Origin: a virus
Lineage: Duplodnaviria; Caudoviricetes
Length of the DNA: 58,953 nt
Virus record (IMG/VR): IMGVR_UViG_3300009788_000015
Location: 1-58,953 of that record
Strand: one strand, 5' to 3'
Shown here in pieces: positions 14,412 to 31,720 of the stretch (position 1 is the first letter of the stretch; each line of letters opens with the position of its first letter). The translations under genes were made by a program, and so were the position numbers. The notes below the pieces were generated by a model. That model saw only the letters and a program-made list of their open reading frames with translations, was not told the origin of the DNA and did no database searches.

Positions 14412-14422
14412 CTCTACTCGGT

Positions 14423-14941
14423 TCACCCGAGCAGCTCCTCGGCCTCCCTCTTCCCGCTGCCGTTGGCACCGGGGGCCGCGCGAGTGAGGTTCTTGACGCG
14501 CTGCTCCTCGATCCACTCCTCGGGCGTCCTCTGCGCCGGCGCCACCAGGACGCCCACCATGCTCGGCTCGACCTGGTGAATGAGCTTGTCTTCCTGTCGC
14601 CAACCGAACTGGCACTTCATGATGAACATCCCGCAGATGGCGGACTGGGGGTGCTTGTCGTCGGTGGCCTTCTTGAAGAGCGAGGCGGCGACCTTGGCCT
14701 TGACCTTCGAGCGGCCCGTCGCAAGCTCCTGCCGGAAGTGCTCCCGAAGGGTCTTGTCGGAGATCCCCTTGCCCGTTCGCGGGTTGAGGATGACGACCGC
14801 GACCTCCTCCTGAGTCATGCCCAACCCCGCCATCAGCTCGACCTGCTGGCGCTGCTCCGCCGTGGGCCGAAAGGGCGGCATGCCCTTCCACCGCCTGGCG
14901 CCCTGCTTCTTCGCCACCGCCTTCTTTCGACGCGCAACCAT
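14423..14941 (-). CDS. terS: Terminase small subunit (HTH)
   Basis: FRPTAEQRQQVELMAGLGMTQEEVA...ISDKTLREHFRQEL...KCQFGW; upstream of TerL. Confidence 0.78.
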   Translation of the reverse strand: MVARRKKAVAKKQGARRWKGMPPFRPTAEQRQQVELMAGLGMTQEEVAVVILNPRTGKGISDKTLREHFRQELATGRSKVKAKVAASLFKKATDDKHPQSAICGMFIMKCQFGWRQEDKLIHQVEPSMVGVLVAPAQRTPEEWIEEQRVKNLTRAAPGANGSGKREAEELLG

Positions 14942-14956
14942 GCTCCACCTCCTCTG

Positions 14957-16597
14957 CTAGCCCAAGACGTCCTCGATGACGCCGCGTTCGTGGACAACTT
15001 CGTCGAAGGTTGTATCACCCTTTCCGTCCAGCGTCGCGGTCCTCCCCGTCTTCTCCTGCCACCGGCGCACCACGACGTCCACGTAGGTCGGCTCCAGCTC
15101 CAGGCCGTAGCACCTGCGCCCGAACAGCTGGGCGGCCATCAAGGTCGTCCCCGTGCCCAGGAACGGCTCCAGCACCAGCCCGCCCTCGGGGCACGAGCTC
15201 ACCACCGCGCGCGCGATCATCCTGGTCGGCTTCGGCGTGGCGTGGCCGTAGCGGTCCTCCTCGACGACCCGCCCGAACTGCCAGACGTCGGTCATGGAGT
15301 CGTGGGCGTTGTCGAAGTAGGACCGAGCCTCGCACACCTGGGCGTACAGTTCCTGGTGGTAGACGACACTTCCTTCCTTGACGTCCGAGAACTGGTCGAC
15401 GAGCTCGTCGTAGCCGATGGAGAAGGCACCACCCTTCGCCGCGGCGCGCAGCTTGTTGTAGTTGGTCCTCGTGATGAAGTGGAACTGAGACTTGCCGAAC
15501 CAGTGCCCGGCCATGCGGGTGCCGGTGATCCGGTTGACGTCCCCGGCCTTCCAGCCCGCAGCGTCGCGCTGCCCGACCATCCACCGGCGCAGGGGCTCGT
15601 AGCCCTCCCAGTATTCGTCCTTGTTCTGGTTGCCGAGGAACTGCTGGCCCCGCATGAGGAACAGGCACCGCTCCGTCTCGGGGCTGTAGCTGTGCTGCCC
15701 CTCACCAGACATGCCGAAGCCAGAGCCTTTGGCCCACACGACCTCGTTGCGCACGTGCAGCTCGTCGACCTCGCTGAGCCCCGCGGCGTACCACAGACGC
15801 CACAGGTCCGGCGCGTTGCCCCAGATATACAGCCCGCAGTTCTGGCGCGCGTAGCGCAGCGCGAGCTGCAGCCACTTGAGCTGGAAGGCGTCGAGCTTGT
15901 CGGCGTAGAGGTTGTCGTTGGCGATGCCGTCGGCCTCCTTACCCATGCCGTAGGGCGGGTCGGCGTGGACCAGGTCGGCGAGCTCCTCACCCATGAGCTT
16001 GCTCACGTGGGCGGCGGTGGTCGCGTCGCCGCACAACACGCGGTGGTTGTCGAGCAGCCAGAGGTCGCCCGAGCGCGTGACCGCCACCTCCTCGACCGAG
16101 GTGAACTCGTCGGCGCCCTCCAGGCCCTTGGGGTCGACCACGTCGGGCTCCAGCAGGCTGGCCAGCGTCGAGGCGTCGAAGCCGAGCAGGTCGACGTCGA
16201 AGTCGTCCAGCGTGTTGAGCTCCCCGACCTCGACCTTCAGCAGGTCGGTGTCCCACCCCGCGCTGATGGTGAGCTGGTTGTCGGCGATCACGTAGGCGTG
16301 CTTCTGCGCCTTCGTCCAGCCCCGCGCCACGACGCACGGCACCTCGTCGACGCCGAGCTTCAGCGCGGCGAGCACGCGGCCGTGGCCGGCAATGATCCCA
16401 TCCTCCTCGTCGACCAGCACCGGGGTCGTCCACCCCCACTCCTCGATCGACGCGGCGATCTGGGCGACCTGCCGGGGCGAGTGGACCCGCGCGTTGTGGG
16501 CGTAGGGCACCAGGTCAGCGACTCGGCGACGGTGGACCTCCTCGGCGGGCCACCCGTTGGACTTCGACACCGGGCGCCGCTTCACCTTGGCCTTCAT
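14957..16597 (-). CDS. ParB-like N-domain fused to N6/N4 DNA methyltransferase (beta class)
   Basis: LVPYAHNARVHS...IIAGHGR (ParB); DPPY, HATPKP, EPFLGTGT motifs. Confidence 0.9.
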   Translation of the reverse strand: MKAKVKRRPVSKSNGWPAEEVHRRRVADLVPYAHNARVHSPRQVAQIAASIEEWGWTTPVLVDEEDGIIAGHGRVLAALKLGVDEVPCVVARGWTKAQKHAYVIADNQLTISAGWDTDLLKVEVGELNTLDDFDVDLLGFDASTLASLLEPDVVDPKGLEGADEFTSVEEVAVTRSGDLWLLDNHRVLCGDATTAAHVSKLMGEELADLVHADPPYGMGKEADGIANDNLYADKLDAFQLKWLQLALRYARQNCGLYIWGNAPDLWRLWYAAGLSEVDELHVRNEVVWAKGSGFGMSGEGQHSYSPETERCLFLMRGQQFLGNQNKDEYWEGYEPLRRWMVGQRDAAGWKAGDVNRITGTRMAGHWFGKSQFHFITRTNYNKLRAAAKGGAFSIGYDELVDQFSDVKEGSVVYHQELYAQVCEARSYFDNAHDSMTDVWQFGRVVEEDRYGHATPKPTRMIARAVVSSCPEGGLVLEPFLGTGTTLMAAQLFGRRCYGLELEPTYVDVVVRRWQEKTGRTATLDGKGDTTFDEVVHERGVIEDVLG

Positions 16598-16635
16598 GCG
16601 GGCGGAGGCTATCCCACGTTAGCTCGGATTGCACG

Positions 16636-16914
16636 TTAGCGGTGATAGGGACAGCGGAAGGCGCAGAAGTCCAGCAGGGACCAGAGCAGGGACTCCGGCA
16701 CGTTGACGTCGTGTGGCCCTTTTCCAAAGTCGGCGTGGCACCTAATCGTGCGTAGCTGCCGACCCTTCCACATCACCGTCGGAAGAGCGGCTACCTCAAC
16801 CCCCCGCTCCTCCATGGTCCTACCGAGGATCGGCTCGACCTCCGCGAACGCCGCGCGCGCCCTAGCTAGGCAGCGTTCTTCGTGCAGGCCAACACTGCGT
16901 CCACGATGCCTCAT
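16636..16914 (-). CDS. Hypothetical Cys/His protein
   Basis: ATGA coupling with upstream gene; C-terminal FCAFRCPYH. Confidence 0.55.
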   Translation of the reverse strand: MRHRGRSVGLHEERCLARARAAFAEVEPILGRTMEERGVEVAALPTVMWKGRQLRTIRCHADFGKGPHDVNVPESLLWSLLDFCAFRCPYHR

Positions 16915-17273
16915 ACGTACGCCGGCTCGCCCCGCCGACCCTCCATGATGTGTCTAGCCAGGATCAACCCGTTGGCCACGCCGTGGTCGTATACGTTGCC
17001 CCCTTCGCCCTTCGTGACCTGTGAAGCCGCCACCTCGGTGACCGCGCGGAGCCGGTCGAGTCTCTTCTTCAGGCGCAGTCGCATCGACTGTTCCCTGGCC
17101 CTCTCGGTCATCGCGGTCACGCGGAACTTCCTGTAGAGCGTGGAACGTGCGACGCCCAATAGCTTGGCAGCCTCCTTGAGGTCGCCCCTGGTGAGTTGAA
17201 TCGCGCGCGCCACGTGGTCGTCTGCGACTTCGTGTAGGGTCGGAAACTCGGCCTTCTCGCGCCGGTCATACAT
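16911..17273 (-). CDS. Fis-type HTH DNA-binding protein
   Basis: RAIQLTRGDLKEAAKLLGVARSTLYRK matches the Fis/NtrC HTH_8 signature. Confidence 0.75.
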   Translation of the reverse strand: MYDRREKAEFPTLHEVADDHVARAIQLTRGDLKEAAKLLGVARSTLYRKFRVTAMTERAREQSMRLRLKKRLDRLRAVTEVAASQVTKGEGGNVYDHGVANGLILARHIMEGRRGEPAYV

Positions 17274-17425
17274 CTCTTCCTTGCTGCAGCTGCGAGCGCA
17301 CGCGCTTCCTCGCGACCCAGCAAAACGGCGTCCAGCGGTACCCCTGGATGTAGATACGCTCCCAGGAGAACCACCTCCCGCCCGCGCGAGACCACCTCCC
17401 CAGCCTCGGTAAGATCACCCTCACG

Positions 17426-18139
17426 TCACTCGCCTCCCGGGATCAGCCCGTAGGCGTGCGTGGCCACGTAGCCCAGCTCGTTCTCCTCTGGCGCCTCGAC
17501 GACCAGCTGCACGTACATCGGGGCGGTGAGTCGGACCTGGCCGTGGACCTCCACGATGCCCGAGGTCGGCTGCCGGTGGAACCTGGGGCCGTAGTCCGTG
17601 ACCTGGAGCCCGGGGAAGGGCAGCACCACGTCGAAGGGGACCAGCTGCAGGACCGGTTCGTCGACGGTGTTCCAGTTCACCGGCTCCTCGAGGAGCGTGG
17701 GCGAGAACACCAGCCAGGCATCCCGCTCGGACACCCCCTCCTCGCCGCCGGTCGTGAACCAGATCGTCAACGTGGAGCTGCGCAGCACGTCGTCGCGCCG
17801 GGGCAGCAAGTGGACGATGACCTGCGGCGGCGGCTCGACGGTGGAGGTGCTCACCACTTGGTCCTCGGGAGGGAAGGCTCGGAGCTCATAAATCGGCTCG
17901 GCCATCGCGGGCGCGAGCTCGGCCCGCAGCACGCCCCGGGTGACCACGTCGGCGTCGACGGGCGGCGGCCTCCCCGCTGCCTGGTCGAGCAGCTCGCCGA
18001 GCGTCAGCGGCCGCTCCGGTTCAACCACCTGCTGAATGGGCGTGCAGGTGAAGGCCAGCGTCAACCAGATCACCGCCACCGTGGCCCAGAGCGTGCCGAA
18101 CAGCACCTTCGCCACGGCCCTCTCAGTTTGGTAGTTCAC
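17426..18139 (-). CDS. Membrane-anchored hypothetical protein
   Basis: GTG start with GGAGG; N-terminal TM VLFGTLWATVAVIWLTLAF. Confidence 0.6.
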   Translation of the reverse strand: MNYQTERAVAKVLFGTLWATVAVIWLTLAFTCTPIQQVVEPERPLTLGELLDQAAGRPPPVDADVVTRGVLRAELAPAMAEPIYELRAFPPEDQVVSTSTVEPPPQVIVHLLPRRDDVLRSSTLTIWFTTGGEEGVSERDAWLVFSPTLLEEPVNWNTVDEPVLQLVPFDVVLPFPGLQVTDYGPRFHRQPTSGIVEVHGQVRLTAPMYVQLVVEAPEENELGYVATHAYGLIPGGE

Positions 18140-18261
18140 GACTCCTCCAACACCCGCACGTGCAGGGCCTCGTCCACCCGACGCCCGCGCTGCCGCCAAA
18201 GGCAGAACCACAGTTGACCGTCCTCGGTGCGGTACCTAGTCCACAGGGTCTTCCAGAACAT
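18136..18261 (-). CDS. Small hypothetical protein (41 aa, Trp/Arg-rich)
   Basis: AGGAG RBS, coupled stop/start. Confidence 0.4.
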   Translation of the reverse strand: MFWKTLWTRYRTEDGQLWFCLWRQRGRRVDEALHVRVLEES

Positions 18262-18265
18262 CTGC

Positions 18266-18793
18266 CTACTCCTTTGGTTTGTGGTCGTGGTGGTCCGGGT
18301 GGACCATGTCGGATTCCTCGGCGCCTTCGTTCCCCTTGGCCTCCCCGTCTCTGGGCACAGCGAAGGCGGCCATGATCTCCACGCCGCGTTCGACGAGTTT
18401 CCGCGGCGTAACGTCCTGGTCGTCGAGCAGCCACTCCATACTCGCCACGGTGTGCTCGGCGGCCAGCCTGAAGCTGACGTCGAAGGCGTTGAACGCCTCG
18501 CTGGACAAGTGCTCGCCGACGACGCGCCTAGGAATCTCGAAGTAGGCGTGGCACACGTGCAGCAGCTCGTGCCGCAGCGTCTCCAGGACGTGGCCCGCGT
18601 CGTCGTGCTTCGCCGAGTCAAACCCCAGCGTCGCGCGAAAGTGCGGCACGTCCACCAGGCACGTGCCGATGTCGTCGTCAGCCAAGGCGCGGTAATGGAC
18701 ATTGACGTGCCACCGGCTCAGGCCCAGGGCCATCCGCATCTCGCGGACCGCCCCGTCGACGACCTTGCGAACCTGCGCGTCGCTCATGCTCAT
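18266..18793 (-). CDS. Putative zincin metallopeptidase-like protein
   Basis: HELLH (HExxH) motif with downstream E. Confidence 0.6.
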   Translation of the reverse strand: MSMSDAQVRKVVDGAVREMRMALGLSRWHVNVHYRALADDDIGTCLVDVPHFRATLGFDSAKHDDAGHVLETLRHELLHVCHAYFEIPRRVVGEHLSSEAFNAFDVSFRLAAEHTVASMEWLLDDQDVTPRKLVERGVEIMAAFAVPRDGEAKGNEGAEESDMVHPDHHDHKPKE

Positions 18794-19215
18794 CAGTCCA
18801 CCCTCTTGACCCGCAGGCCCATGAAGCACATGTCCAGTGCGAGGTCCTCTGTCACCGTGAAGTTCAGCAGGTTGCGCTCGCAAGCCCTGGTGACCTCGTC
18901 CTCGGTGAGCACAATCTCCGACACCCCCGCCCTGATCAAGCTTGCCGCGCGCTCGGAGAGCCGTTCGAGCTCTCCTCGAGCTTCAGGAAAGAGGGTCGCC
19001 TCCGGAAAACCACCGTACACAGACGTGTTGCTGAACCGATCGACGGACACGACGACTTCTGCAGAGCGCCTATCCGCGCACGTCGAGCACGGACACCGGC
19101 TCCACAACCACTCCCACCGCAGCTGCCACGCCTTCGGCATCGGCTCGTTCCACGGCCGGATCAGCTCAGAGGCCAAGGAGATGGCAGCGCAGAAGATCAA
19201 CATGGCCCAGATCAT
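18793..19215 (-). CDS. Hypothetical protein with N-terminal hydrophobic segment and CxxC
   Basis: Coupled to neighbouring genes. Confidence 0.5.
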   Translation of the reverse strand: MIWAMLIFCAAISLASELIRPWNEPMPKAWQLRWEWLWSRCPCSTCADRRSAEVVVSVDRFSNTSVYGGFPEATLFPEARGELERLSERAASLIRAGVSEIVLTEDEVTRACERNLLNFTVTEDLALDMCFMGLRVKRVD

Positions 19216-19420
19216 GGTGACAGCGCCGGCCGGGGGCGGGGCGGGGTCGACTGGCCGTGGTCCCGCGTCCCTGCCGGTTGGCTGCCCGACATCGTGCCCA
19301 ACGGCGGCGCGGAGTCAATAGGAGGCGGAACCTGCAAGGTTATAGGCCCAGGAACCCGCCGGCCGTCAGGGCTCTCGCCCTTGCCCCCTGACCAGCGGGC
19401 CCCAGGCACCCGCAATCGTC

Positions 19421-19621
19421 TCACTCGCCGGGGTCGTCCACCAGCCCTTCGTTTTCGCTGCTAGGACCAGGCAGCGGAATCAGCTGCAGGCGGAGCCCCA
19501 GGGCCTCGGCGACGCCCCGCATGTGCGGCGCGTGCTCCACGCAGATGCCGGCCTCGTCCTCCCCCGGCCAGGTGAACCGATACGCGGCGACAGCGCCACA
19601 ACCCTGTTGGCTGCAGATCAC
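19421..19621 (-). CDS. Small Zn-finger-like hypothetical protein
   Basis: CSQQGC...CVEH. Confidence 0.55.
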   Translation of the reverse strand: MICSQQGCGAVAAYRFTWPGEDEAGICVEHAPHMRGVAEALGLRLQLIPLPGPSSENEGLVDDPGE

Positions 19622-20004
19622 GCGACCTCGACCCAGAGCGCGACCACGCCCTCGGCGACGCCCTGCAGGTCGCTCTTGCCGAGGTCCGTGATCGGGCCGA
19701 TATACACGGCGAGCTTTTCCTGCTCGCGGGCGTACGCCAGGTCGACCTCCTTGCGCGCCAAGAACTTCGACCGCTCGCGCACGTTGTGCATCGAGTCCAA
19801 CACGTCGAAGCCCGCTCGCTTCGCCGACTCCTGCCCAACCTCGAAGGCCTTGAAGCCCACGGGCGTGCGACAGTTGCCAGCGATGAACACAACCCAGAGC
19901 GCGGCGTTGTCCTTCGCCGGCCCGAGCGGCAACTTCGGCACGCTGAAGCCCGCGAGCATCGCGCTGGCGCCGGCGATGAGTCCACGCCTGGTGATCCTCT
20001 CCAC
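19618..20004 (-). CDS. Hypothetical protein with twin-arginine-like leader
   Basis: GGAGG RBS, GTG start, ITRRGLIAGASAMLAGF. Confidence 0.55.
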   Translation of the reverse strand: MERITRRGLIAGASAMLAGFSVPKLPLGPAKDNAALWVVFIAGNCRTPVGFKAFEVGQESAKRAGFDVLDSMHNVRERSKFLARKEVDLAYAREQEKLAVYIGPITDLGKSDLQGVAEGVVALWVEVA

Positions 20005-20005
20005 G

Positions 20006-20233
20006 TCAGTCCTCCTTGCCCGGCGCGTCGTCTCCCTCGCCAAGTTCGCGCACGAACCCAACCAGCAGCATCAGGCCCTTGCACGGGTCGGTGCCCACGT
20101 CGTGCGGCCTCGTGCAGGTGATGAGCACGCAGCCGTCGTGGGCTAGCTGCGCGGCGGGTTGCCTCGCCTGGCGTCTGGTGCGCCAGCCGCAGAGCTGGCA
20201 GTACCACTGGTTGAGGTATCGTTCGCTGGCCAT
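20006..20233 (-). CDS. Zn-ribbon-like hypothetical protein
   Basis: CQLC...C...C; directly downstream of a predicted promoter. Confidence 0.55.
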   Translation of the reverse strand: MASERYLNQWYCQLCGWRTRRQARQPAAQLAHDGCVLITCTRPHDVGTDPCKGLMLLVGFVRELGEGDDAPGKED

Positions 20234-20241
20234 AGGTCGCA

Positions 20242-20270
20242 AGGATGCCAACTGGGCGCCCCGAGGTCAA
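20242..20270 (-). promoter_or_regulatory. Sigma70-type promoter TTGACC-17-CATCCT, near-leaderless
   Basis: 17-bp spacing; -10 ends 8 nt before ATG 20233. Confidence 0.55.
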
Positions 20271-20323
20271 ACCCGTTCGCCGGGGGCCGGTCTCCTCAGG
20301 CGCAGCGAACCGCCGCCGCTTCG

Positions 20324-21352
20324 TCACCCGAGCAGCTCCTCGACCTCGCGCAGGGACCTGGCCATGCGGCGCCACCACTCCAGGAGCACGTCGACGTTGC
20401 GGACCTCGCCCCGCTCGGCCTTGCCGATCCACCAGGCGGACAGCCCGGTCCACCCGGCCACCTCCCTGGGCGACAGCCCGGACCGCCGTCGAAGGACGAA
20501 CGCCTCCTCGTGCGCCTCCAGGCGCCGCAGGTTGGCCCGTGGTGGCCCCGATTCGCCCAGCTCCCACCGGTGGTACCGACCGGCCGCGACGCCGTACAGG
20601 GCGGCACACGCCCCCTGGGAGAGTCCTGCGCGGCGTCGGCTGACCTCCAGGGTCTCGCCCAGCGTCAGGTCATCAACAGTCAGGATCGGCTCCACGATCG
20701 TCGGATCCTTTTCTAATCGGTAGATCGCCACGTGGGCGCCAGGCTCCTGGCCCGGGTCGGCCCACAGCTTGAGCGGCGGCGCCCAGGCCACCTGCTGGTC
20801 GTCGCACCATACCAGGTGCGGGCAGCCGTCAAAGCCCCCGAGGGCGTCCACCAGCGCCTTGCCGAGGTTGTCCGCGTCGGGCTTGGAGGTGTGGAAGGTC
20901 GGGGCCCCGGCCTTGAGCTCCCGGTCCCGCCGCCCGGCGACGTGGTGCGACTTGGGCCGCCGGAACCTGAAGGTCATCTCGACGGCCACCGCGACACCGA
21001 GGGGGACCAGCCCGGTCACCCCGCCGCGGAGCAGGGCCAGCCGACACGCGGCCCGGGCGCCGTGCTTCCACGCGTCGGCCGAGTGGTCCCGGTGGATTCG
21101 ACCGTCCTGCCCCTTCCTCGCCCGGGGCTCGCCGGCGGGTTCGCCCTCGACTTCGAAGGCGGTGAAGTCGAGGTCGCGGGATTTGCTGGCCCTTTGGGGG
21201 GCCCCCCTACGGGGGGCACCCCCCCAGGGGCCACCAAACCTCATCCCGTGCGGCCCATCCGGCCTTTGCTGGCCCTTTTTGGTAACGCACTGTGCTACAT
21301 GGGTTTGTGACTTTGCTGGCCCATCCGGCCCTTTTGCTGGCCCACCCTTCAC
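20324..21352 (-). CDS. rusA: RusA-like Holliday junction resolvase fused in frame to a tandem XRE-HTH module
   Basis: VEGEPAGEPRAR...FRFRRPKS...KPDADNLGKALVDAL...DDQQV; C-terminal two HTH units. Confidence 0.8.
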   Translation of the reverse strand: MKGGPAKGPDGPAKSQTHVAQCVTKKGQQRPDGPHGMRFGGPWGGAPRRGAPQRASKSRDLDFTAFEVEGEPAGEPRARKGQDGRIHRDHSADAWKHGARAACRLALLRGGVTGLVPLGVAVAVEMTFRFRRPKSHHVAGRRDRELKAGAPTFHTSKPDADNLGKALVDALGGFDGCPHLVWCDDQQVAWAPPLKLWADPGQEPGAHVAIYRLEKDPTIVEPILTVDDLTLGETLEVSRRRAGLSQGACAALYGVAAGRYHRWELGESGPPRANLRRLEAHEEAFVLRRRSGLSPREVAGWTGLSAWWIGKAERGEVRNVDVLLEWWRRMARSLREVEELLG

Positions 21353-21380
21353 GACAGTAGGTCCCCGATTTGCTGGCCCT
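21180..21380. repeat. Iteron-like array, putative replication origin
   Basis: TTTGCTGGCCC at 21182, 21265, 21312, 21333, 21369, plus a G/C homopolymer hairpin at 21196-21225. Confidence 0.7.
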
Positions 21381-23412
21381 CACCCGTGGGCCGGGCCGTA
21401 AGTCCTGGCTCCGTAAGGACGTAGCTCCGATTCTTGTCCTCGCCCGCCTTTGCGAGCCACCCGGCCACCACCGCCGCGTCCACCCGCCGCCGCGCCTGCT
21501 TCGGCGAGCAGCTGAGTAGCGACGCCAGCTCGGCGCGCGGGGTCACCAGTCCGACCCGCTCGCGGACCACGGCGAGCAGCCCGTCGTCCACCTCGGGGAA
21601 CATGTCGGCCACGCTGGCCTGCCGGTCGACGAACGTCACGGCCGTCACCGGGCGGCCCCGGTCGTCCTCGCCTAGCTGCACCGGCAGCAACACGCCCTCG
21701 ATCCTGTCCGGGCGGGCCCAGTCCTTGTGCTTGTGGGGGGTGGCGTAGGCGGCCGAGCCGCCGCCGGGCCTGGTGACCTCGAAGGAGGCGTCCAGGGCCG
21801 CGCCCATGGCCGAGCTGCCCCGGCCCCTACCCTTGTCGGCGTGCCCGGTGTGGTGGACCAGGAGCACCAGGGCGCCCGTCTCGCGGACCAGGGCGTCGAC
21901 CTGGTCGACGAAGGCGCCCATGTCCTCGCTCGAGTTCTCGTTGCCCGGCCCGAAGTTCCGCGCCTGGGTGTCCAACACGATCAGCGCCGGCGGCTCGCCC
22001 GGCTCGGCGTTCAGGACCGCCCGGACCTCCCGGGCCCACCTGGCCCGGTTCTCGGGCAGCAGCAGGGCCCCGGGCCGGGTGGACAGGTAGACCGGCAGGT
22101 CGTGGGGGCGCAGCGTGGGGTCCACCTGGTCGAGCTGGGCCTCGAACCGCCGGCCGAGGCCGTCGAGGCCCTCGCCAGCGACGTAGAACACCCGGCCGGG
22201 CCGGTCGAGCTCGTAGCCGTGCCAGTCCATTCCGGCGGCGACGTGGATCGCCAGGGACACGACCATGGCCGTCTTGCCCGAGCTCGGGTCGCCGAAGAAC
22301 TGGGCCATGCCCCTGGCCGGCAGCAGCCCGTGCAGCAGGAACTGGGCGCGGCGGCCGCGCTCGATGGCGTCGGCGAGCTGCAGGAACCAACCACCGGTGG
22401 GGGCGTCCTGCCTTTGTGGCGGCCGCCAACTTGGCAGGTCGAACCCGTCGTCGAAGGTGGCCCGCAGCCTGCCCGGGCCCTTGGCGTGGGTGCGGCAGAG
22501 GTCGGCCGTGACCCAGTCCTCGCGGCCGTAGCGGGCCGGGTCCCGGCTCTCCACCTCGCCCCGGCCGTAGGCGGTCTCGTGGATCAGGAACGATGCGGCC
22601 TCGGCGACGTGGTCCCTGGCCGCCCGCAGGACGGCCACCTCCAGCTCCTGGAAGCCCTCCGAGGCGGACGGGTGCCCCATGGCTTCCCAGTAACCGGCCG
22701 CCAGGTGGGCGATCCTACCGTTCTTGGGCAGCCGCTGGGCGACCTCGCCGCGCCGGGGTGGTGGGCCCTGGCCATCGGGCCGCGCCGCCCCGGACACCGC
22801 CCCGGCGTCCATCTGGGCCCCGTAGCGCTGCCGCAGCCAGCCCAGGCCGCCGGGCGCCGGCAGCGGCTCGGCCGAGGTGCCCTTGAGCTGGTCGCCGGTC
22901 ACGGTCACGTACTGGGCGGGCCCGCAGCCGAAGACCTGGATCTCGGGCGCCTTGTCGATGGGGCTATCCGCCGGCACCCGGATAATCGGCACCGGCGGCG
23001 GGAGCGCGGGGACGACCACGAACGTGCGCAGCCCGGTGCCGGACGGGCTGACCTCGGTGTAGCTGTTCAGGAAGGCGTCGAGGACGAACTGGGCCCAGGG
23101 CACCACCTGGCCGTCGAAGTAGCAGGCGTCCAGATCCAGCGCCAGCAGGAAGCCGTCCGGGACCTCGACGCCACCGGTGAAGACGAAGCCGCGGCCCCCG
23201 TCGGGGCCGCACTCCACGTTCTGCACGTTCTTGAACGTGCGGCGGTTTGCCTCGTCCTTCGTGCTGCCCGCCGGCTTCTTGGTGAGCCTGCCGCCCGCGT
23301 TCTGCTCCAGGCGCCACGTGGTCCAGCGCGGGATTCGCCGCAACATCTCGGGTATTTGGGCGCGCCGTGGGTCGTTGGACTCCCTACCGCGCGTCCCTTT
23401 GGTGTTTGGCAT
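21349..23412 (-). CDS. Primase-polymerase / RecA-type (AAA_25) helicase
   Basis: LDLDAC...YTEVSPSGTGLR (prim-pol); GDPSSGKT Walker A, LIVLDT, LVHHTG...RGSSA; likely ATG at 23412. Confidence 0.88.
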   Translation of the reverse strand: MPNTKGTRGRESNDPRRAQIPEMLRRIPRWTTWRLEQNAGGRLTKKPAGSTKDEANRRTFKNVQNVECGPDGGRGFVFTGGVEVPDGFLLALDLDACYFDGQVVPWAQFVLDAFLNSYTEVSPSGTGLRTFVVVPALPPPVPIIRVPADSPIDKAPEIQVFGCGPAQYVTVTGDQLKGTSAEPLPAPGGLGWLRQRYGAQMDAGAVSGAARPDGQGPPPRRGEVAQRLPKNGRIAHLAAGYWEAMGHPSASEGFQELEVAVLRAARDHVAEAASFLIHETAYGRGEVESRDPARYGREDWVTADLCRTHAKGPGRLRATFDDGFDLPSWRPPQRQDAPTGGWFLQLADAIERGRRAQFLLHGLLPARGMAQFFGDPSSGKTAMVVSLAIHVAAGMDWHGYELDRPGRVFYVAGEGLDGLGRRFEAQLDQVDPTLRPHDLPVYLSTRPGALLLPENRARWAREVRAVLNAEPGEPPALIVLDTQARNFGPGNENSSEDMGAFVDQVDALVRETGALVLLVHHTGHADKGRGRGSSAMGAALDASFEVTRPGGGSAAYATPHKHKDWARPDRIEGVLLPVQLGEDDRGRPVTAVTFVDRQASVADMFPEVDDGLLAVVRERVGLVTPRAELASLLSCSPKQARRRVDAAVVAGWLAKAGEDKNRSYVLTEPGLTARPTGEGQQIGDLLS

Positions 23413-23558: not shown

Positions 23559-24980
23559 ATGCTCGCCCTCTACCCATACCAAAAGACCGGCGCCGACTGG
23601 CTCGCCGAGCGCGCGCGGGGCTGCCTGTTCGACGAGATGGGGATGGGCAAGACCATCACCGCAATCCGTGGTGCTGGACAGGCCGGCGCCCACCACATCT
23701 TGGTATTGGTGCCGACGGTCGTGCTCTGGAACTGGGAGCGCGAGTTCAAGAGGTGGGCACCAGCGGCCGACGTCCAGGTGCTCGAATCGGGGCGCGACCA
23801 GGTCGTGGACCGCCCGCGGGCGGCGAAGAAGCTCGGCGTCCTCGGCCCGCAGCACGACGTCGTCGTCACCACCCACGGCCTGATCCTGCGGCCCGCGATC
23901 TTCTCGCAGCTCGTGGCGCGACGGTGGGATCTGCTGGTCGTCGACGAGTGCCACTTCTTCAGGGGCCCCGAGGCGAAGCGAACGAACCGGCTCTACAACC
24001 TCGAACGGCCGGCGGTCCCCGACGCCGGGCTAGACATGGAGGTGAAGGCGCTGGCGGACGCCGCATTCCGCGTCTGGCTGCTGTCCGGGACGCCGATGCC
24101 CAACCACGTCGGCGAGCTCTGGACCCATCTGCGCGGCCTGTTCCCCGAGCGAATCAGGAACGTCAAGCTCAAGCCCGCGAGCCACGCCGCGTTCCTCGAC
24201 GCCTACTGCGTCACGAGGGAGACGAAGTACGGGCCCAAGGTCGTCCACAACAAGAACCTGGGTCACTTGAGGAAGAGGCTGCGCGGCATCGTGCTGCGCC
24301 GGATGAAGAAGGACCACCTCAAGGACCTGCCGCCGATCCGCTACGAGCTCGTCACCCTCAAGCCGCGCAAGATGCCGTGGGAGCTGAAGGTCCTCGACGG
24401 CCGGCTGCGCCCCAAGCTCGTGGAGGCGGCGAAGGAGGGCCTCGGTGACGATGCCGGCCCCGACGCCGCCTGGCGCGCGCTCAGGGGCGAGGAGGACTTC
24501 ACGCGGCTGCGCCGCATGATCGGGCTGGCGAAGCTGGAGCCGGTGGTCGAGCTGCTGTCCATGGAGCTGGAGTCGCGCGCCTTGGACAAGGTCGTGCTCT
24601 TCGCGCATCACGTGGAGACGATCAGCATGGCGGCGGACGCGCTGGCGAAGTTCGGCGCGATCGTCATCACCGGGGCGACACCGGCGCGCCGGCGCCAGGA
24701 TCTGATCGACGCCTTCCAGCAGCGCCCGAGCGTGCGGGTCGCGGTGTGCAACATCGTGGCCGCCGGCACCGGCACGACGATGACGGCCGCCGCCGACGTG
24801 CTCTTCCTGGAGGCGTCGTTCGTGCCCGGCGAGAACGCGCAGGCCGCGCAGCGCGTCCATCGCATTGGCCAGGACGCCAAGGTGCGGGTGCGGTTCGTGG
24901 CGCTGGCCGGCACCAGCGACGAGGACCTGGTGCGCGCGCTGCGCAGGAAGACCGAGATGATCCGCGAGGTACTGAACTGA
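23559..24980 (+). CDS. SNF2-family helicase
   Basis: LYPYQ, DEMGMGKT, DECH, LSGTPMPN, QAAQRVHRIGQ. Confidence 0.92.
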   Translation: MLALYPYQKTGADWLAERARGCLFDEMGMGKTITAIRGAGQAGAHHILVLVPTVVLWNWEREFKRWAPAADVQVLESGRDQVVDRPRAAKKLGVLGPQHDVVVTTHGLILRPAIFSQLVARRWDLLVVDECHFFRGPEAKRTNRLYNLERPAVPDAGLDMEVKALADAAFRVWLLSGTPMPNHVGELWTHLRGLFPERIRNVKLKPASHAAFLDAYCVTRETKYGPKVVHNKNLGHLRKRLRGIVLRRMKKDHLKDLPPIRYELVTLKPRKMPWELKVLDGRLRPKLVEAAKEGLGDDAGPDAAWRALRGEEDFTRLRRMIGLAKLEPVVELLSMELESRALDKVVLFAHHVETISMAADALAKFGAIVITGATPARRRQDLIDAFQQRPSVRVAVCNIVAAGTGTTMTAAADVLFLEASFVPGENAQAAQRVHRIGQDAKVRVRFVALAGTSDEDLVRALRRKTEMIREVLN

Positions 24981-26131: not shown

Positions 26132-26412
26132 GGCACCCCAAGGTGACGGAGCTGGCCGACGCGCTCATCGTGGTCGGCGACCTGATCGAGGAGCTGGTCA
26201 AGGAGAAGATCCAGGTCGACCTGCAGGTCTGGCACGACGGTGGCGGCACGTCGATGCTGCTGCGCGAGCTGAGCGGCGAGTTCGAACTGCGGGCGTCGAC
26301 CGTCTATACCGTCGAGCCCGAGGAAGTCGAGGAGCCTAAAGAGCCCGAGCCGTCAGTGGGCGAGGTGGTCCTGCAGGCCGACTTCGAGGTCCCACCGCAG
26401 GAGAAAGACTGA
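26128..26412 (+). CDS. Acidic hypothetical protein
   Basis: GTGA coupling, GGAG RBS. Confidence 0.55.
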   Translation: MRHPKVTELADALIVVGDLIEELVKEKIQVDLQVWHDGGGTSMLLRELSGEFELRASTVYTVEPEEVEEPKEPEPSVGEVVLQADFEVPPQEKD

Positions 26413-26414
26413 CG

Positions 26415-26783
26415 ATGCGCGACCCCTACAAGCACGACGTCGCCGGCACCAGCTACATCAGGGGCGTCACCGACTTCAACTTCGAGGCGCTGTTCGTGGT
26501 GGTGGCGATGGTGGTGCCCAGCGGGGACTTCCGCGGCGCCATCAAGAGCATCGTGATGCACCCGACCGTCCTTGCGAGGTACCTCCTGCTGCGCCTGGAA
26601 GTGGAGGTCCCGGCGGTGGTCGCAGAGAAGGTCATGAGGGCGATCCAGGCCGACGCGGGGACGCTGCTCGGCATGCCGATCGTGGTGGACTCGAGCGCGC
26701 CCCGCCACGGGGACACCTACCACACCAAGGTCACGGCGCGCGACGGGCGCACCGGCGTCCTGGTGACGAGGGAGGGACGGTGA
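26415..26783 (+). CDS. Hypothetical protein
   Basis: GGAG RBS, ATG start. Confidence 0.55.
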   Translation: MRDPYKHDVAGTSYIRGVTDFNFEALFVVVAMVVPSGDFRGAIKSIVMHPTVLARYLLLRLEVEVPAVVAEKVMRAIQADAGTLLGMPIVVDSSAPRHGDTYHTKVTARDGRTGVLVTREGR

Positions 26784-27094
26784 TGGCCGACCTGACCGAA
26801 GACCAACGCGTGGAGCTCGTCGCCGCCCTGCGGCTGCTCGCGGACCACCATGAGGAGTCGGGCGCGATCACAGGCGGCAAGAAACTCGACGACGCCCGCA
26901 TGGTGGTCACCTGCAGCGTGACCCGATACGCCATGGCGATGTTCGTCCAAGGCCTCGCGCACGGCGGCTACGTCAAGGAGGGCGCCTACCAGGACGAGCT
27001 GCTGCAGCGCGCCAGGAACCTGTTCGCTGGCCGCGGTTTCGCCACCGACGCTGAAGTCCGGGAAGGCTCGGAGACACACGACCTACTCAGTTGA
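26780..27094 (+). CDS. Hypothetical protein; C-domain paralogous to the next gene
   Basis: GYVKE...ELLQRARNLFAGRGFATD. Confidence 0.6.
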   Translation: MMADLTEDQRVELVAALRLLADHHEESGAITGGKKLDDARMVVTCSVTRYAMAMFVQGLAHGGYVKEGAYQDELLQRARNLFAGRGFATDAEVREGSETHDLLS

Positions 27095-27113
27095 AACCCA
27101 CGCATCCTGACGC

Positions 27114-27623
27114 ATGACGCACCGCGAGAGCCAGACCCTCGCTTACCACCGCATCCGCGACAACGGACTGCTGTCCCGCCTGCGGTTCCTGGTCTACGAA
27201 GCGATCTACAAGCACCAGGGCGAGGACGGCGTGACGAGCGGCGAACTTGACCGCATCATCTCGCGAGACGTGAACGCGTGGACGCGCAGCGCATCGCCCC
27301 GCCTTGGGGAGCTCGTCGACCTGGGCACGATCGAAGAGCTGCCGTTGAGGCCCTGCCGGGAGACCGGGCAGACAGTCATCGCGTACCGCACGACCGGCGA
27401 GCTACCAAACCCCGATGGACTGCACAGGGTCCGGCCCTTCGACTCGAAGCGATGCGCAATCGCCATGGCCAAGCTGTTCAAGCGCATCGTCGCCGAGGGC
27501 TACGTGCGCGAGGACCACGAAAAAGAGCTACTGGACCGGGCCCGCAACATGGAACATGGGCGCGGCTTCATCACTGACGAAGAACTATGGCAACAACAAC
27601 AGGTAGAGGACCTCCTAGCATGA
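27114..27623 (+). CDS. Winged-helix-like protein with paralogous C-domain
   Basis: VYEAI...GVTSGEL...ASPRLGELVDLG...RPCRETG; C-term GYVRE...ELLDRARNMEHGRGFITD. Confidence 0.6.
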   Translation: MTHRESQTLAYHRIRDNGLLSRLRFLVYEAIYKHQGEDGVTSGELDRIISRDVNAWTRSASPRLGELVDLGTIEELPLRPCRETGQTVIAYRTTGELPNPDGLHRVRPFDSKRCAIAMAKLFKRIVAEGYVREDHEKELLDRARNMEHGRGFITDEELWQQQQVEDLLA

Positions 27624-28030
27624 ACGTCACGATCAACATTGGCATCACGGCAGCGACCAACCTGGACCACCTAGCGCAGGCCATCGGCTACATGCGCAGC
27701 ATCGAGGAAGGCTGCGAGGTGGCGGCGACCGAGGCGCCCGAGCCCAAGAAGGACGACGTCGCCGCGAAGGCCGCGGCGAAGAAGGCGGCCGCCTCGAAGA
27801 GGCGGGCGGCCGCGAAGAAGACCGCCGAGATCGTGGACGACGACCCGCTCGGCGTCGGCGAAGACGCCGACGGCCCGACCCTCGACGAGGTCAAGGAGGC
27901 GGTGCGCGGCTTCATCGCCGACAACTCGGTCGAGGCCATGAAGGAGCTGCTCGGCGAGTTCGGGGCCAAGAAGCTGAGCGAGCTTGACGAGGCCAAATAC
28001 GGCGAGCTGGTGCAGCGCCTGGCGACGTGA
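27620..28030 (+). CDS. Conserved small protein preceding DUF2800
   Basis: PTLDEVKEAV...KELLGEFGAKKLSEL...YGEL C-terminus typical of this module. Confidence 0.7.
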   Translation: MNVTINIGITAATNLDHLAQAIGYMRSIEEGCEVAATEAPEPKKDDVAAKAAAKKAAASKRRAAAKKTAEIVDDDPLGVGEDADGPTLDEVKEAVRGFIADNSVEAMKELLGEFGAKKLSELDEAKYGELVQRLAT

Positions 28031-29217
28031 GCGGCCACGCCGAGCTCGCACCGTCCGCATCCGAGCGGTGGACCCGGTGCCCGGGCAGCGTCGGGCTCTG
28101 CCGCGGCATCCCCGACGAGGGCTCGCCGGCGGCGCGCGAGGGCACCTTCGCCCACGCCGTCGCCGAGCGGTGCCTCAAGAGCGGCCTGCAGGCCGAGGCC
28201 ATGCTCGACAGCACCGATGGCGAGTTCACCTGCGACGGGGACATGGTCGGGCACGTCCAGACCTACATCGACGCCGTGCTCGACGTGGAGCCCGCGCGGG
28301 GCTGCGAGCCGGCGTTCGAGGTGAAGGTCACCCTAACTGGCGTGCGCAACGACATCCACGGCACCCTCGACGCAATGGTGCTGGCGCCGGGCAACGTCCT
28401 GCACGTGTTCGACCTCAAGTACGGCAGCGGCGTGTTCGTCGACGTCGAGGACAACCCCCAGCTCAAGATATACGCGCTCGGGGTTCTGCTGACCTTCGGG
28501 TCTCTGATGTCCAAGGTGGAGGAGGTCGTGCTGCACGTCGTGCAGCCGCGCCACCACCGCGGCGGGCACAGCCTGTGGACCGTGGGCGCGGTCGAGCTGC
28601 GCGCGTGGGGCTCGGTGGTGCTCAAGGAGGCGGCCAGGCTCACCGACGACCCGGCGGCGGCACTGCACGCCGGCGAGTGGTGCGGCTTCTGCCGCGCGAA
28701 GCCGATCTGCCCTGAGCTCAGGCGGGCGTCGCTGGAGCACGCGGGCCAGCTGTTCACCGACGAGACCATGGAGGCCCCCGCGAAGGTGCCCCCAAAGCCC
28801 GAGTCCCTCGGCCCCGAGGAGCTGGCCACGGCGCTGGCCGCCTTCCCGGTCATCGAGCAGTGGATCAGGGCCGAGCGCGAGCACGCCTACGGCCTCGCCG
28901 CGGGCGGCTCCGCGCCGCCCGGCTTCAAGCTCGTCGCCAAGGTCGGCAACCGCAGGTGGAAGGACGAGGCCGACGCCGCGGCGGCGCTGGAGATGTTCCT
29001 CCCGGACGGCAAGGAGCCGTGGCAGGAGCGCCGGCTCCTGTCACCGGCGCAGGCCGAGAAGCTGCTCGGAAAAGGCGACAAGAAGGTCGTCGCTGGGCTC
29101 ACCACCAAGCCCCATACTGGAAGCGTCCTGGTACCCGTGGCCGACAAACGCCCCGCGCTCGTGCGCGCGGACGTGTTCGACGACGGGGCCGCACTAACCA
29201 ACACTGACCAACCCTAA
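28027..29217 (+). CDS. DUF2800 / Cas4-like PD-(D/E)xK exonuclease
   Basis: HAELAPSASERWTRCPGS, EGTFAH, GTLD, DLKYG, QLKIYALG, WCGFCRAKPIC. Confidence 0.9.
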   Translation: MSGHAELAPSASERWTRCPGSVGLCRGIPDEGSPAAREGTFAHAVAERCLKSGLQAEAMLDSTDGEFTCDGDMVGHVQTYIDAVLDVEPARGCEPAFEVKVTLTGVRNDIHGTLDAMVLAPGNVLHVFDLKYGSGVFVDVEDNPQLKIYALGVLLTFGSLMSKVEEVVLHVVQPRHHRGGHSLWTVGAVELRAWGSVVLKEAARLTDDPAAALHAGEWCGFCRAKPICPELRRASLEHAGQLFTDETMEAPAKVPPKPESLGPEELATALAAFPVIEQWIRAEREHAYGLAAGGSAPPGFKLVAKVGNRRWKDEADAAAALEMFLPDGKEPWQERRLLSPAQAEKLLGKGDKKVVAGLTTKPHTGSVLVPVADKRPALVRADVFDDGAALTNTDQP

Positions 29218-29234
29218 AAGCTGAGGAAACTACC

Positions 29235-29825
29235 ATGGCAGAACTAGGACCCACTGAGATCGTCACGCCCCCGCTGCGTCTCGCGTTCCCCGCCCTCTTC
29301 GAGCCTAAGCCGGTCGCGAAGGGCAAGAGCGACGAGATGTACCAGGCGGTGCTGCTGCTCCCGCCCGACACCGACCTCAAGCCCTTCGCCGCGTGCATCA
29401 AGGCGGCGGCGCTGGAGAAGTTCGGCAAGCTGCCGCCGATGGCGGCGGACAAGAACCCCATCAAGAGCTGCGCGGGCAAGTCGCAGTTCGCGGGCTACGA
29501 CGAGGGGTGGCATTACATCAACACGAAGTCCAAGTTCGAGCCGACGGTCGTGGACCAGCGGCGGCAGTCGATCATCGACCCCAAGATGATCTTCGCCGGC
29601 TGCTGGTGTCGGTTCCACATCAACGCCTTCGCCTACGACCACCCCCAGGGCGGCAAGGGCGTCAGCTTCGGGCTCAACGCCGTGCAGCTGGTCCGCGAGG
29701 ACGAGCGGCTCGACGGGCGCAAGACCGCCGAGGAGGTGTTCGACCCCATCGAGGTCGAGGGCGACGAGGACGTGGCCTTCCAGGAGGCCGCCACCGAGAC
29801 CGACGCCGAGGCGCTGTTCGGCTAG
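29235..29825 (+). CDS. ssb: Single-stranded DNA-binding protein (DUF2815, gp2.5-like)
   Basis: RLAFPALFEPK...FAGCWCR...KGVSFGLNAVQLVREDERL; acidic tail. Confidence 0.88.
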   Translation: MAELGPTEIVTPPLRLAFPALFEPKPVAKGKSDEMYQAVLLLPPDTDLKPFAACIKAAALEKFGKLPPMAADKNPIKSCAGKSQFAGYDEGWHYINTKSKFEPTVVDQRRQSIIDPKMIFAGCWCRFHINAFAYDHPQGGKGVSFGLNAVQLVREDERLDGRKTAEEVFDPIEVEGDEDVAFQEAATETDAEALFG

Positions 29826-29838
29826 GAGCGTGCCGCAG

Positions 29839-30495
29839 ATGGGTCACGCCAAGATACGGCTCCTGCTCGACCAGGAGGCGGACCCTCCTGACCCGGCGCG
29901 ATACGTCGTCTGTTCTGGGTTGGTGCGGTCACGCCACCGCTGCCTCTGGGCGGTGGTGGACTCGCACGCTCAGTTGAGAGCCGCCGATGACTCGTATGAG
30001 GGGTTGGACCCGAAGGTCGGGCGCGCGCTGTTCGTGCCCCAGGTTGACCAACTCCAATTTGTCCGCCCCGACGGCACGGTCGTCGGGGCAGGCGTGGACG
30101 GGCTGGCCGAGTTCAGGCGCGAGGTCGCGGCGCAGATGCGGGGGCGAAACTCAGTGCCGGTGGACGTCGTCCGCGGCGATGGATTGCGTGAGACGATCAT
30201 GGCGCAGCCGGTGGGCGAGCACTTCGTCGTCTACCGCGGAGGTGATCCTCCCCGCGCGTGGCATGTAACTCACGTCGCGTCGGGCTTGGCCGCCCGCAGG
30301 GACTTGGGCACGAGGCTGCTGGCCGCGGCGATCGCGGTGGCGCTGCAGCGCATACCCATCCCGTGGGGGAAGGAGGAGCCACTGGCGCTCGAAAACACGA
30401 GCGTGGAGCTGGCGCTCCGGACGGGTCGCGCCGCAGGAATGACCGACTTGAAACTGCTGCGGGACGAGGCGGCGGTGGACGAGATGCTTCACTAG
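29839..30495 (+). CDS. Hypothetical protein
   Basis: AGGAG RBS; WHVTHVASGL motif. Confidence 0.55.
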   Translation: MGHAKIRLLLDQEADPPDPARYVVCSGLVRSRHRCLWAVVDSHAQLRAADDSYEGLDPKVGRALFVPQVDQLQFVRPDGTVVGAGVDGLAEFRREVAAQMRGRNSVPVDVVRGDGLRETIMAQPVGEHFVVYRGGDPPRAWHVTHVASGLAARRDLGTRLLAAAIAVALQRIPIPWGKEEPLALENTSVELALRTGRAAGMTDLKLLRDEAAVDEMLH

Positions 30496-30510
30496 CGAGG
30501 AGGTGGTAGC

Positions 30511-30732
30511 GTGCCCAAGGTGAAGTCAGACGACCCGGTGTATCGAATGCTGCACGACGACGAGCGCACCACGACGCCGACGGTGTTCGAGGAGGGCTGT
30601 TCCATCTGCGAGGATCCCGAGTTCGCGCGGATGGGGCTGCCTCTGTGCTACGCCTGCAGGTTCTGCAGCGGGCACGTGGCCGCCGACGACTGCGAGTGCG
30701 ACGAATGTGGCCGCGACCAGAGGGATGAATGA
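30511..30732 (+). CDS. Cys-rich Zn-binding protein
   Basis: CSIC...CYACRFC...CECDEC; GGAGG RBS. Confidence 0.6.
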   Translation: MPKVKSDDPVYRMLHDDERTTTPTVFEEGCSICEDPEFARMGLPLCYACRFCSGHVAADDCECDECGRDQRDE

Positions 30733-31686
30733 GCTGGCTCTATGTGCCGGGAACGGTGGCCTCTCGCTCGGACTACGCCTTGCTGTCGCAACGGCTCGCA
30801 CGGTCTGCGTGGTGGAGAGGGAAGCCTTCTGCTGCGCGGACCTGGCGCGCAAGATGTCGGCGGGCATCTTGGATTCGGCACCGCAACCTTCGATGGCCGC
30901 CCATGGCGTGGAGCAGTGGACCTCATCACTGCTGGCTTCCCGTGCCAGCCTTCCAGCGCGGCGGGCAAGGGCCTCGGCGTCGACGACCCGCGGTGGCTCT
31001 GGCCACAGGTCCAGCGCATCTGCGGGGAGGCGTCGCCCGGACTCGTCTTCCTCGAAAACGTCCCCGGGATCCGCACCAAGGGACTGGTCGAAGTCCTCGA
31101 AGGGCTTGCCGATCTCGGCTTCGATGCGTGGTGGGATTGTTTCAGCGCGGCCGAAGTCGGCGCGCCGCACCTCCGAAGGCGCTGGTTCTGCCTGGCTGCC
31201 CACCCCGAGCGCGCGGACCTACGGGACCTCTGGCAATGGGTGCCCGGGGGACGGCAGGGAGGCCTACGCGCACCGGGGGACGCCGAGCCTCAACACGATG
31301 GCGCGGACGGGGATGTGGCCATCTCCGAGTGCATCGGACGCCCTCGGGTCGAGGACCCTGCCACCGGGAACGACAGCGACGGGAGTAACGCCCGAAGGAA
31401 AGAAAAAGCAGGTCGGGTTGAACAACGCAGTGAGACTGTGGCCGACGCCGAAGGCGCGCGACTACAGGAGTGGCCGCTGTCGCCAGACGACGAGGCAACG
31501 GAACAGAGACCACTCGCCGGACCTGGAGAGGGTGGTTGGTGGTCTGCTGAACCCGACGTGGGTCGAGTGGCTGATGGGGTTGCCGACCGGGTGGACCGGC
31601 TCCGGTCCATCGGCAACGGGGTGGTCCCGCTGGTGGTCGCTCATGCGTTCAGAACTCTCGCGGCTCGGGCAGCTGGCGTGGATTGA
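30725..31686 (+). pseudogene. dcm: C5-cytosine DNA methyltransferase, frameshifted near 30884
   Basis: Motif I (LCAGNGG) is in the frame of ATG 30725. AGFPCQ, ENV, APHLRRRWF and RLRSIGNGV are in another frame. Confidence 0.8.
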
Positions 31687-31720
31687 CCGCGAGCGCGAGA
31701 TAGAGGACATCCTGTCCTGA
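30729..31720 (+). other. Overprinted alternative-frame ORF within the MTase (MSWLYVPG...WPTP...LNPTWVEWLMG), also split at ~30884
   Basis: Long open frames 30729-31388 and 30707-31720 overlap the MTase; TGATG coupling to the DNA polymerase. Confidence 0.5.

Follow-up and report, generated by a model that had tools for sequence, protein, structure and literature searches.

The genome analyzed here, IMG/VR virus record IMGVR_UViG_3300009788_000015 (Duplodnaviria; Caudoviricetes), is 58,953 bp long and is referred to in full as the window. It encodes a set of about ten unrelated DNA-metabolism and packaging proteins that share one short C-terminal ending, or tag, in which an acidic residue is followed by two hydrophobic residues and, usually, a small one. 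The pattern [DE][LIVMF][LIVMF][GSANH]-stop ends eight of 78 proteins, where 0.23 would be expected (binomial P 1e-10) from its internal occurrences (53 in 17,747 positions). We lean, if only slightly, toward reading the tag as a portable short linear docking motif, hydrophobic-x-[DE]-[LIVM]-L-[GSA]-COOH, recognized by one partner. Much is known of short docking peptides in eukaryotic viruses, whereas in phages they have been mapped only poorly.

The record is complete, with direct terminal repeats and a G+C content of 68%, and gene calling by codon statistics gave 78 complete genes and one open-ended gene, which were annotated with Pfam and PHROGs. A stricter form of the ending, [DE][DE][LIVM]L[GSA], closes four of the 78 proteins and occurs internally once. 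When the last 30 residues of the proteins were shuffled, none of 20,000 shuffles reached eight matches (mean 0.24, maximum 4). Exact placement at the C-terminus accounts for eight occurrences of the pattern, and no other offset within 40 residues of the end has more than two. As external controls, 75 distant PolA-bearing phage loci had the pattern at the end of 5 of their 1326 proteins, and bacterial loci at the end of 4 of 990. All eight tags fall in the block from 14.4 to 31.7 kb, which holds the replication, recombination and packaging genes: within 14423-31720 the tagged genes number 8 of 26, and beyond it 0 of 52 (Fisher P 6.7e-5). Written out more fully, the motif reads hydrophobic(-6)-x-[DE](-4)-[LIVM](-3)-L(-2)-small(-1), a spacing that corresponds to one face of a short helix. 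A preliminary description of this DNA had noted a tag shared by unrelated DNA-metabolism and packaging proteins; these counts support a real tag concentrated on such proteins, the C-termini that it quoted are all present, and its family assignments agree with Pfam and PHROGs.

The tagged genes belong to two divergent operons that meet near 23.5 kb. The leftward operon contains the primase-helicase, a RusA resolvase with fused helix-turn-helix domains (RusA-HTH), about ten small genes, a ParB-methylase fusion, TerS, a small Cys-rich open reading frame (ORF), TerL and the head genes. The rightward one contains an SNF2 helicase, small genes, a DUF2800 exonuclease, an SSB (a protein that binds single-stranded DNA) of the gp2.5/Enc34 type, two small genes, a C5-methylase and a family A polymerase. 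The proteins concerned are these:

14423-14941, minus strand: TerS, ending EAEELLG (encoded at 14426-14446, then stop); phrog_309, E 6.3e-10.
14957-16597, minus strand: ParB-like domain fused to an N6/N4 DNA methylase, ending VIEDVLG (encoded at 14960-14980); PF01555, phrog_498, phrog_620.
20324-21352, minus strand: RusA Holliday-junction resolvase fused to helix-turn-helix domains, ending EVEELLG (encoded at 20327-20347); Pfam RusA and HTH_31.
21349-23412, minus strand: primase-helicase of the AAA_25 type, ending QIGDLLS (encoded at 21352-21372); PF13481.
23559-24980, plus strand: SNF2 helicase, ending MIREVLN, a looser match; Pfam SNF2-rel_dom.
26780-27094, plus strand: gp26780, 104 amino acids, no family found in Pfam or PHROGs, ending ETHDLLS.
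27114-27623, plus strand: gp27114, 169 amino acids, function-unknown family phrog_1123, ending QVEDLLA.
29235-29825, plus strand: gp2.5/Enc34-type SSB, ending DAEALFG; PF10991, E 8.7e-32, and phrog_112.
29830/29953-30495, plus strand: gp29830/29953, 180-221 amino acids, no family found in Pfam or PHROGs, ending AVDEMLH.
30707-31720, plus strand: frame-1 product across the C5-methylase region, ending EIEDILS.
31720-33750, plus strand: family A DNA polymerase, untagged; PF00476.
43691-43918, minus strand: gp43691, 75 amino acids, a loose match outside the block, ending GDGILD.

The SSB (ALFG) and gp43691 (GILD) match the pattern more loosely and were left out of the eight; an end like that of gp43691, GDILD, also occurs on the primase-helicase orthologue P0013. 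The SNF2 ending lies within a C-terminal stretch common to all close orthologues, K-x-x-M-I-x-E-[VL]-[LI]-x, and may be part of the fold or of a conserved terminal helix instead of an added tag.

Where does such an ending come from? The window SSB was searched against 1.84 billion representatives, which yielded 5,298 relatives, and C-termini were taken from the best 150 of these, each standing for a 50%-identity cluster. Of those 150, 56 have D at position -5 and 73 have D at -4; 48 have L and 21 have I at -3; 52 have F and 34 have L at -2; and the last residue is G in 37, F in only 24 and S in 15. The consensus is roughly D-D-[LI]-[FL]-[GSA]-COOH, with variants such as DDLLG, DDVLG and DDILD, while a minority ends like a bacterial SSB, in DDDIPF or DDLPF. 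Since this consensus matches the tag, sequence comparison identifies the window tag as the tip of the phage's own gp2.5/Enc34-type SSB family, with the SSB as its archetype. SSB tails also resemble other tails of their own genome (8 of 829 same-genome pairs with a similarity score of at least 7) more often than those of other genomes (55 of 32,331; Fisher P 1.7e-4). Because host-type SSBs in two metagenome-assembled genomes (MAGs) end in GDIPF and DDLPF, and no window tag ends in PF, the tag does not copy the host SSB tip.

In an AlphaFold2 model of the SSB (83-row alignment), the core has a pLDDT (predicted local distance difference test) above 90 and the last 26 residues about 65, with a short helix at residues 191-193. 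The TerS model (12 rows, moderate overall confidence) has a confident core, then residues 158-163 with pLDDT below 50, then a short helix at 164-171. The tag thus sits on a flexible linker and probably folds as a short amphipathic helix.

The ending is maintained as a peptide. The 15 Leu positions in the window tags use five different codons, and the codons for the tag Ser include TCN as well as AGY. In relatives of the primase-helicase, D-L-L-S is kept through Leu codons CTA, CTG, CTC and CTT and Ser codons TCG, TCA and AGT. Since synonymous codons vary while D-L-L-S is kept, selection evidently acts on the peptide and not on the DNA. A rare-codon function (CTA, GTA, ATA) was also considered and rejected: AT-ending codons make up 11 of 70 in the tags and 68 of 483 at other gene ends.

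Has the tag been inherited with these proteins or added to them? The orthologues give a mixed answer. Tagged orthologues of the primase-helicase number 14 of 34 at full length (35-58% identity) and 3 of 44 among more distant ones, counting [DE]-hydrophobic-hydrophobic-x(0,1) endings. The homologue of gp27114 in related locus L317 (38% identity) ends in EEEDLLS. For TerS, none of 11 orthologues (45-60% identity) is tagged, and their stop comes about ten residues earlier. None of the 119 closest relatives of the ParB-methylase is tagged; they end near ...TFDEVAxERG, where the window protein continues with VIEDVLG. RusA orthologues in L165, L168, L262 and L268 are untagged, as are the separate HTH proteins of L165 and L168, past which the window RusA-HTH extends by 13-15 residues. 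On at least three proteins, TerS, the ParB-methylase and RusA-HTH, the tag is therefore a lineage-specific addition; on the first two, it is not inherited, since the orthologues lack it. Conservation in orthologues, a check named by the preliminary description, holds for the SSB family, 14 of 34 primase-helicases and the gp27114 homologue, and fails for TerS (0/11) and the ParB-methylase (0/119).

Relatives, meaning phages with the same replication module, carry the ending on other proteins that have the same functions, whose families were assigned with PHROGs. Locus L004 has it on RusA (phrog_244, DYLLS), TerS (phrog_1482, GDLLS), SNF2 (QELLS) and primase-helicase (EELLS), and in L265 the same four classes are tagged (DALLS, QELLS, SDLLL, DDVLS). 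The phrog_1770 resolvase of L270 ends in DDLLGF. In L317, the SSB ends in DDLLG and the gp27114 homologue in EDLLS. Relative G003 has tags on a protein upstream of TerL (DELLS), on the SSB (DDLLG) and on a head-module protein after the capsid gene (DDLLS). Tagged unclassified proteins lie just upstream of TerL in L168, L165 and L085, the last being a prophage in a Planctomycetota MAG whose protein ends in EELLS. Altogether, tagged Holliday-junction resolvases fall into four PHROG families (140 in the window, 244 in L004 and L265, 1770 in L270 and, loosely, 34 in G002), and tagged TerS proteins likewise belong to different families (phrog_309/12540 in the window, phrog_1482 in L004 and L265). 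In 18 related records, 16 of 373 proteins have the strict pattern, compared with 5 of 1326 in the distant PolA loci (P 1.5e-7). Non-homologous resolvases and small terminases thus evidently gained the same ending repeatedly and convergently.

An unannotated protein of 197-236 amino acids, encoded just after the putative major capsid gene, is also tagged in three relatives: G003 (L251 6060-6653, DDLLS), G001 (L245 11608-12318, DKLLS) and G005 (L254 3564-4166, PDILT). Because these capsid-adjacent proteins are tagged, the tag extends into the head module in relatives. In the window, the Mu F-like minor head protein (9595-10848, minus strand) ends in DPKDFL, which is tag-like, without the trailing small residue, and is the sole such case outside the replication block.

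Shared docking tails of this general kind are known from other phages, and the statement in the preliminary description that no such system is known was too strong, as the T4 clamp-binding peptide (PMC2988020, PMC6212786) and the T7 tails (PMC12339929) precede it. In T4, gp43, gp33 and gp55 through their C-termini, and the ligase through an internal loop, dock on gp45 by a common hydrophobic-acidic peptide that sits on a flexible linker, is interchangeable between proteins and forms an amphipathic helix in a pocket (PMC2988020, PMC6212786). There gp43 ends in EKASLDFLFG, and a similar ligase loop binds gp45 as an amphipathic helix (PMC6212786). The window tags are likewise short, hydrophobic and acidic, at the extreme C-terminus and, in the models, on a low-confidence linker with a terminal helix; they too are common to functionally unrelated proteins of one phage (8/78, of different Pfam and PHROG families); and ...LDFLFG of gp43 can be set beside ...EALFG of the window SSB and DDLFG of the SSB family. 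Unlike T4, however, the window phage has no detectable clamp gene, its polymerase is never tagged, and the tag is found on the SSB, primase-helicase, TerS, Holliday-junction resolvase and methylases, where T4 has it on the polymerase and late transcription factors.

The likeness to T7 lies in the replication module itself, since the window also has a gp2.5/Enc34-type SSB, a primase-helicase and a family A polymerase, with both the SSB (disordered tail, pLDDT ~65, and a family-wide acidic tip) and the primase-helicase (QIGDLLS) tailed. The acidic tail of T7 gp2.5 binds a basic patch at the front of the polymerase and competes with single-stranded DNA (ssDNA) for its own groove, and a gp4 tail peptide occupies the same site on the gp5 polymerase (PMC12339929). 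In Enc34 SSB (PMC5686142), the tail is disordered, lies in the groove of a neighboring molecule in the crystal and, when removed, alters DNA selectivity. T7 tails differ from the window tags in ending in an aromatic residue (DTDF in gp4; PMC12339929), where the latter end in G, S, A, N or H; and a tail that is also found on packaging, recombination and methylation proteins is not described for T7 in the available part of PMC12339929.

Similarities extend to two bacterial docking sites. The tag shares with the bacterial SSB (D-D-D-I-P-F) an acidic run and a hydrophobic tip at the very C-terminus, which in that SSB serves as a docking site; there the hub, SSB, carries the tail and its clients read it, whereas here many clients carry it. 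The bacterial beta-clamp-binding motif has the consensus Q-L-[SD]-L-F, and like the tag, with its [DE]-L-[FL] core, it is often near the terminus and occurs on many DNA enzymes; DinB in the two MAGs with related prophage or phage DNA has QRGLF and QAVLF. In the window, Q is present in two tags only (QQIGDLLS and QQVEDLLA), at a spacing one residue longer than in the beta-clamp motif. The kind of system is thus already known from T4 and T7; what is new is the identity of the tag with the SSB tip, the set of clients (TerS, resolvase, methylases) and the repeated convergent gain. A full-text literature search, which did not cover supplements, found no prior description of such a shared tag, though one may exist nonetheless.

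The lineage has placed an SSB-type tip on its primase-helicase, TerS, RusA, two DNA methylases and several small proteins, which, if the tag is a docking motif, would thereby plug into whichever partner reads the SSB tail. The outcome would be that replication, recombination, DNA modification and packaging proteins are gathered on the replicating DNA. In its most specific form, this amounts to an SSB-tail code, in which the docking tip of SSB has been copied repeatedly and convergently onto non-homologous TerS proteins, Holliday-junction resolvases, helicases and methylases so that one reader joins replication, branch resolution, methylation and packaging in one DNA factory; we regard this as plausible, although its chances fall somewhat short of even.

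What might the reader be? By analogy, the candidates are the family A polymerase or the DNA-binding cleft of SSB, for which T7 offers the precedent, and the host beta clamp, for which the T4 tool belt does. None of 73 PolA homologues in related loci is tagged. Beta-clamp, gp45 and PCNA domains gave no matches in the phage at E<=1 in six frames, and none in a Pfam scan of 81 proteins; a clamp reader would therefore be the host's, since the phage has no detectable clamp, although a very divergent phage clamp is possible despite the null domain search. Two proteins considered as a candidate hub or divergent clamp, gp27620 and the 237-residue gp17429, gave no usable family in the ESM Atlas. Complex prediction of the polymerase (61-row alignment) with the last 70 residues of the primase-helicase, run without controls, gave a score of 0.00 (mark 0.32) and is neutral on binding. 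T7 gp5 was not among the 18 PDB sequence matches of the window polymerase, and mapping the basic patch of gp5 onto the latter by sequence fails because the two are too distant. An EEVD-type TPR carboxylate clamp, a PDZ domain and a capsid-targeting or encapsulin-like cargo signal were considered as possible readers and left aside. A membrane-targeting helix was also set aside, such helices being basic and the tag acidic.

Several points weigh against docking on a single partner. The pattern was defined post hoc, although the margin of enrichment is large nonetheless, and the gene calls were made from codon statistics. Among the full-length primase-helicase orthologues, 20 of 34 are untagged. 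On TerS, the ParB-methylase and RusA, the tag is young and could be of little consequence. The relatives are phylogenetically related, so that independent gains are fewer than cases. The tags lack the aromatic end of the T7 type, having G, S or A after LL, as well as the Q-hydrophobic start of the beta-clamp motif, in place of which position -6 is hydrophobic and position -5 acidic. Finally, both the docking itself and the single reader are things that we infer.

The foremost alternative, which is unlikely in our estimation though not negligible, is that the tails are similar without having a common reader, either acting in cis as DNA mimics that auto-inhibit their own protein or contacting separate partners, TerL in the case of TerS. 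Every annotated tagged protein does bind DNA, judging by Pfam and PHROGs, and C-terminal regions of TerS commonly bind TerL. The competition between the gp2.5 tail and ssDNA, and the effect of the Enc34 tail on selectivity (PMC12339929 and PMC5686142), would also fit. However, with only two or three acidic residues, placed beside K/R in TerS, the window tags would mimic DNA poorly. Constraint falls on the tip, whose distance from the carboxyl end is fixed; TerS orthologues work without any tag; and within one genome, tails are more like each other and the SSB tail than like the tails of other genomes.

A second alternative, which we consider improbable, is that the tag is a C-terminal degron by which a host or phage protease or AAA+ unfoldase times the removal or remodeling of DNA-bound phage proteins. 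ClpX recognizes C-terminal tags and remodels MuA, and the tag is suitably exposed at the C-terminus on a flexible linker. One of ten window tags does end in LLA, near the L-A-A type of ssrA, whereas G, S, N or H closes the others. Most often the final residue is G or S, with D or E as well in relatives, which differs from the non-polar AA type of ssrA. Moreover, the tip is kept across the SSB family, in which homologue tails are used for protein-protein contacts (PMC5686142), and an abundant SSB is an unlikely target of constitutive degradation.

The last alternative, that the tag is a by-product of a constraint on the DNA (a Shine-Dalgarno sequence of the downstream gene, with GAGGAG encoding EE, or repetition of a DNA element where genes end), is already largely refuted, and we give it almost no weight: a start codon (GTG or ATG) overlaps the stop, with GAGGAG, GGGGAC or GAGGAC 8 nt upstream as acidic codons able to double as Shine-Dalgarno sequence, in only three of nine tagged genes (TerS, primase-helicase and gp27114), while the other six either are followed by a gap that has its own Shine-Dalgarno sequence or have no start within reach; the L-L-small part does not resemble such a sequence; codon positions 1 and 2 are conserved and third positions variable; AT-ending codons are no commoner in the tags than elsewhere at gene ends; and the peptide is kept in relatives with other gene orders. 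A repeated element does have one case in its favor, since the ends of TerS and RusA-HTH (14423-14446 and 20324-20347) share 24 nt at 96% identity, with one base different. This suggests recent copying of the tag-coding end between these two genes, which leaves the remaining tags unexplained; the conserved Arg just upstream of the tag uses different codons in TerS and RusA. The overlap of stop and start codons, which the preliminary description had named along with chance as an explanation that could undo the tag, thus fails on the three-of-nine count and the varied codons, as chance does on the shuffles.

One tagged product has an unusual coding arrangement. In the C5-methylase gene (30707-31720, plus strand), two overlapping frames are both conserved in distant phages: frame 0 has motifs IV, VI and X, and frame 1 has motif I followed by repeats, for example WPTPKARDYR and LNPTWVEWLMGLPTGWT. 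The tag codons of the frame-1 product lie past the stop of the other frame at 31686, and its translation is kept in L164 at 37% identity (E 5e-31), with the ending ETEDLLE. The distant phages concerned are L164 (4798-5905) and L255, Salmonella phage SEN5 (765-1754), in which the frame-1-like match is out of frame with the annotated methylase coding sequence. Either this methylase family has a conserved gene overprinted in its variable region, or a change of frame has been conserved.

Between TerS and TerL lies a separate Cys-rich ORF of 68-73 amino acids (14205-14426, minus strand; CPTC...HKC), for which no family was found in PHROGs or in Pfam at E<=0.05. A frameshift in TerL was ruled out, as 14205-14426 is an ORF of its own and TerL homology begins near 14040; the TerL start is probably near 14220. 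Pfam at E<=0.05 likewise gave nothing for the orphan tagged proteins, the 695-residue gp41579 or the tagged head-module proteins of relatives, apart from a sub-threshold AT-hook match in a 213-residue protein of L235.

As for the origin of the phage, no close isolate turned up when 14-34 kb was compared by megablast with 50,697 phage records, and tblastn of the primase-helicase against phage records gave partial matches only, at less than 60% identity. Viral contigs scanned with a single protein yielded no relative; relatives came only through alignment-based scans. The best full-length primase-helicase matches in bacterial assemblies are in a Verrucomicrobiia MAG contig and a Planctomycetota MAG chromosome, so the host may belong to the Verrucomicrobiia/Planctomycetota group, which we offer as a lead only. 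One relative, L263, has a tagged primase-helicase, a polymerase 53% identical to that of the window and a PurZ-like enzyme (1042-2124; phrog_1211, "2-aminooxy adenylosuccinate synthetase", E 3.6e-67), and may use 2-aminoadenine DNA; no PurZ-like gene was seen in the window by Pfam scan.

What would a shared docking tail mean for such phages? The tagged proteins here have known jobs, and the tag, by linking terminase, resolvase, methylases and replisome proteins with the tail of the phage SSB, yields a testable hypothesis of how a phage without a clamp of its own might physically couple replication to recombination and packaging. It also provides a sequence mark by which the orphans gp26780, gp27114 and gp29953 can be assigned to DNA metabolism, as well as a bait for the reader. 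If the SSB-tail code is true, a six-residue peptide would be both a handle on the hub and a predictor of orphan proteins that work at the fork. Repeated, convergent gain of the tag by proteins that share a function without being homologous speaks for selection of the coupling.

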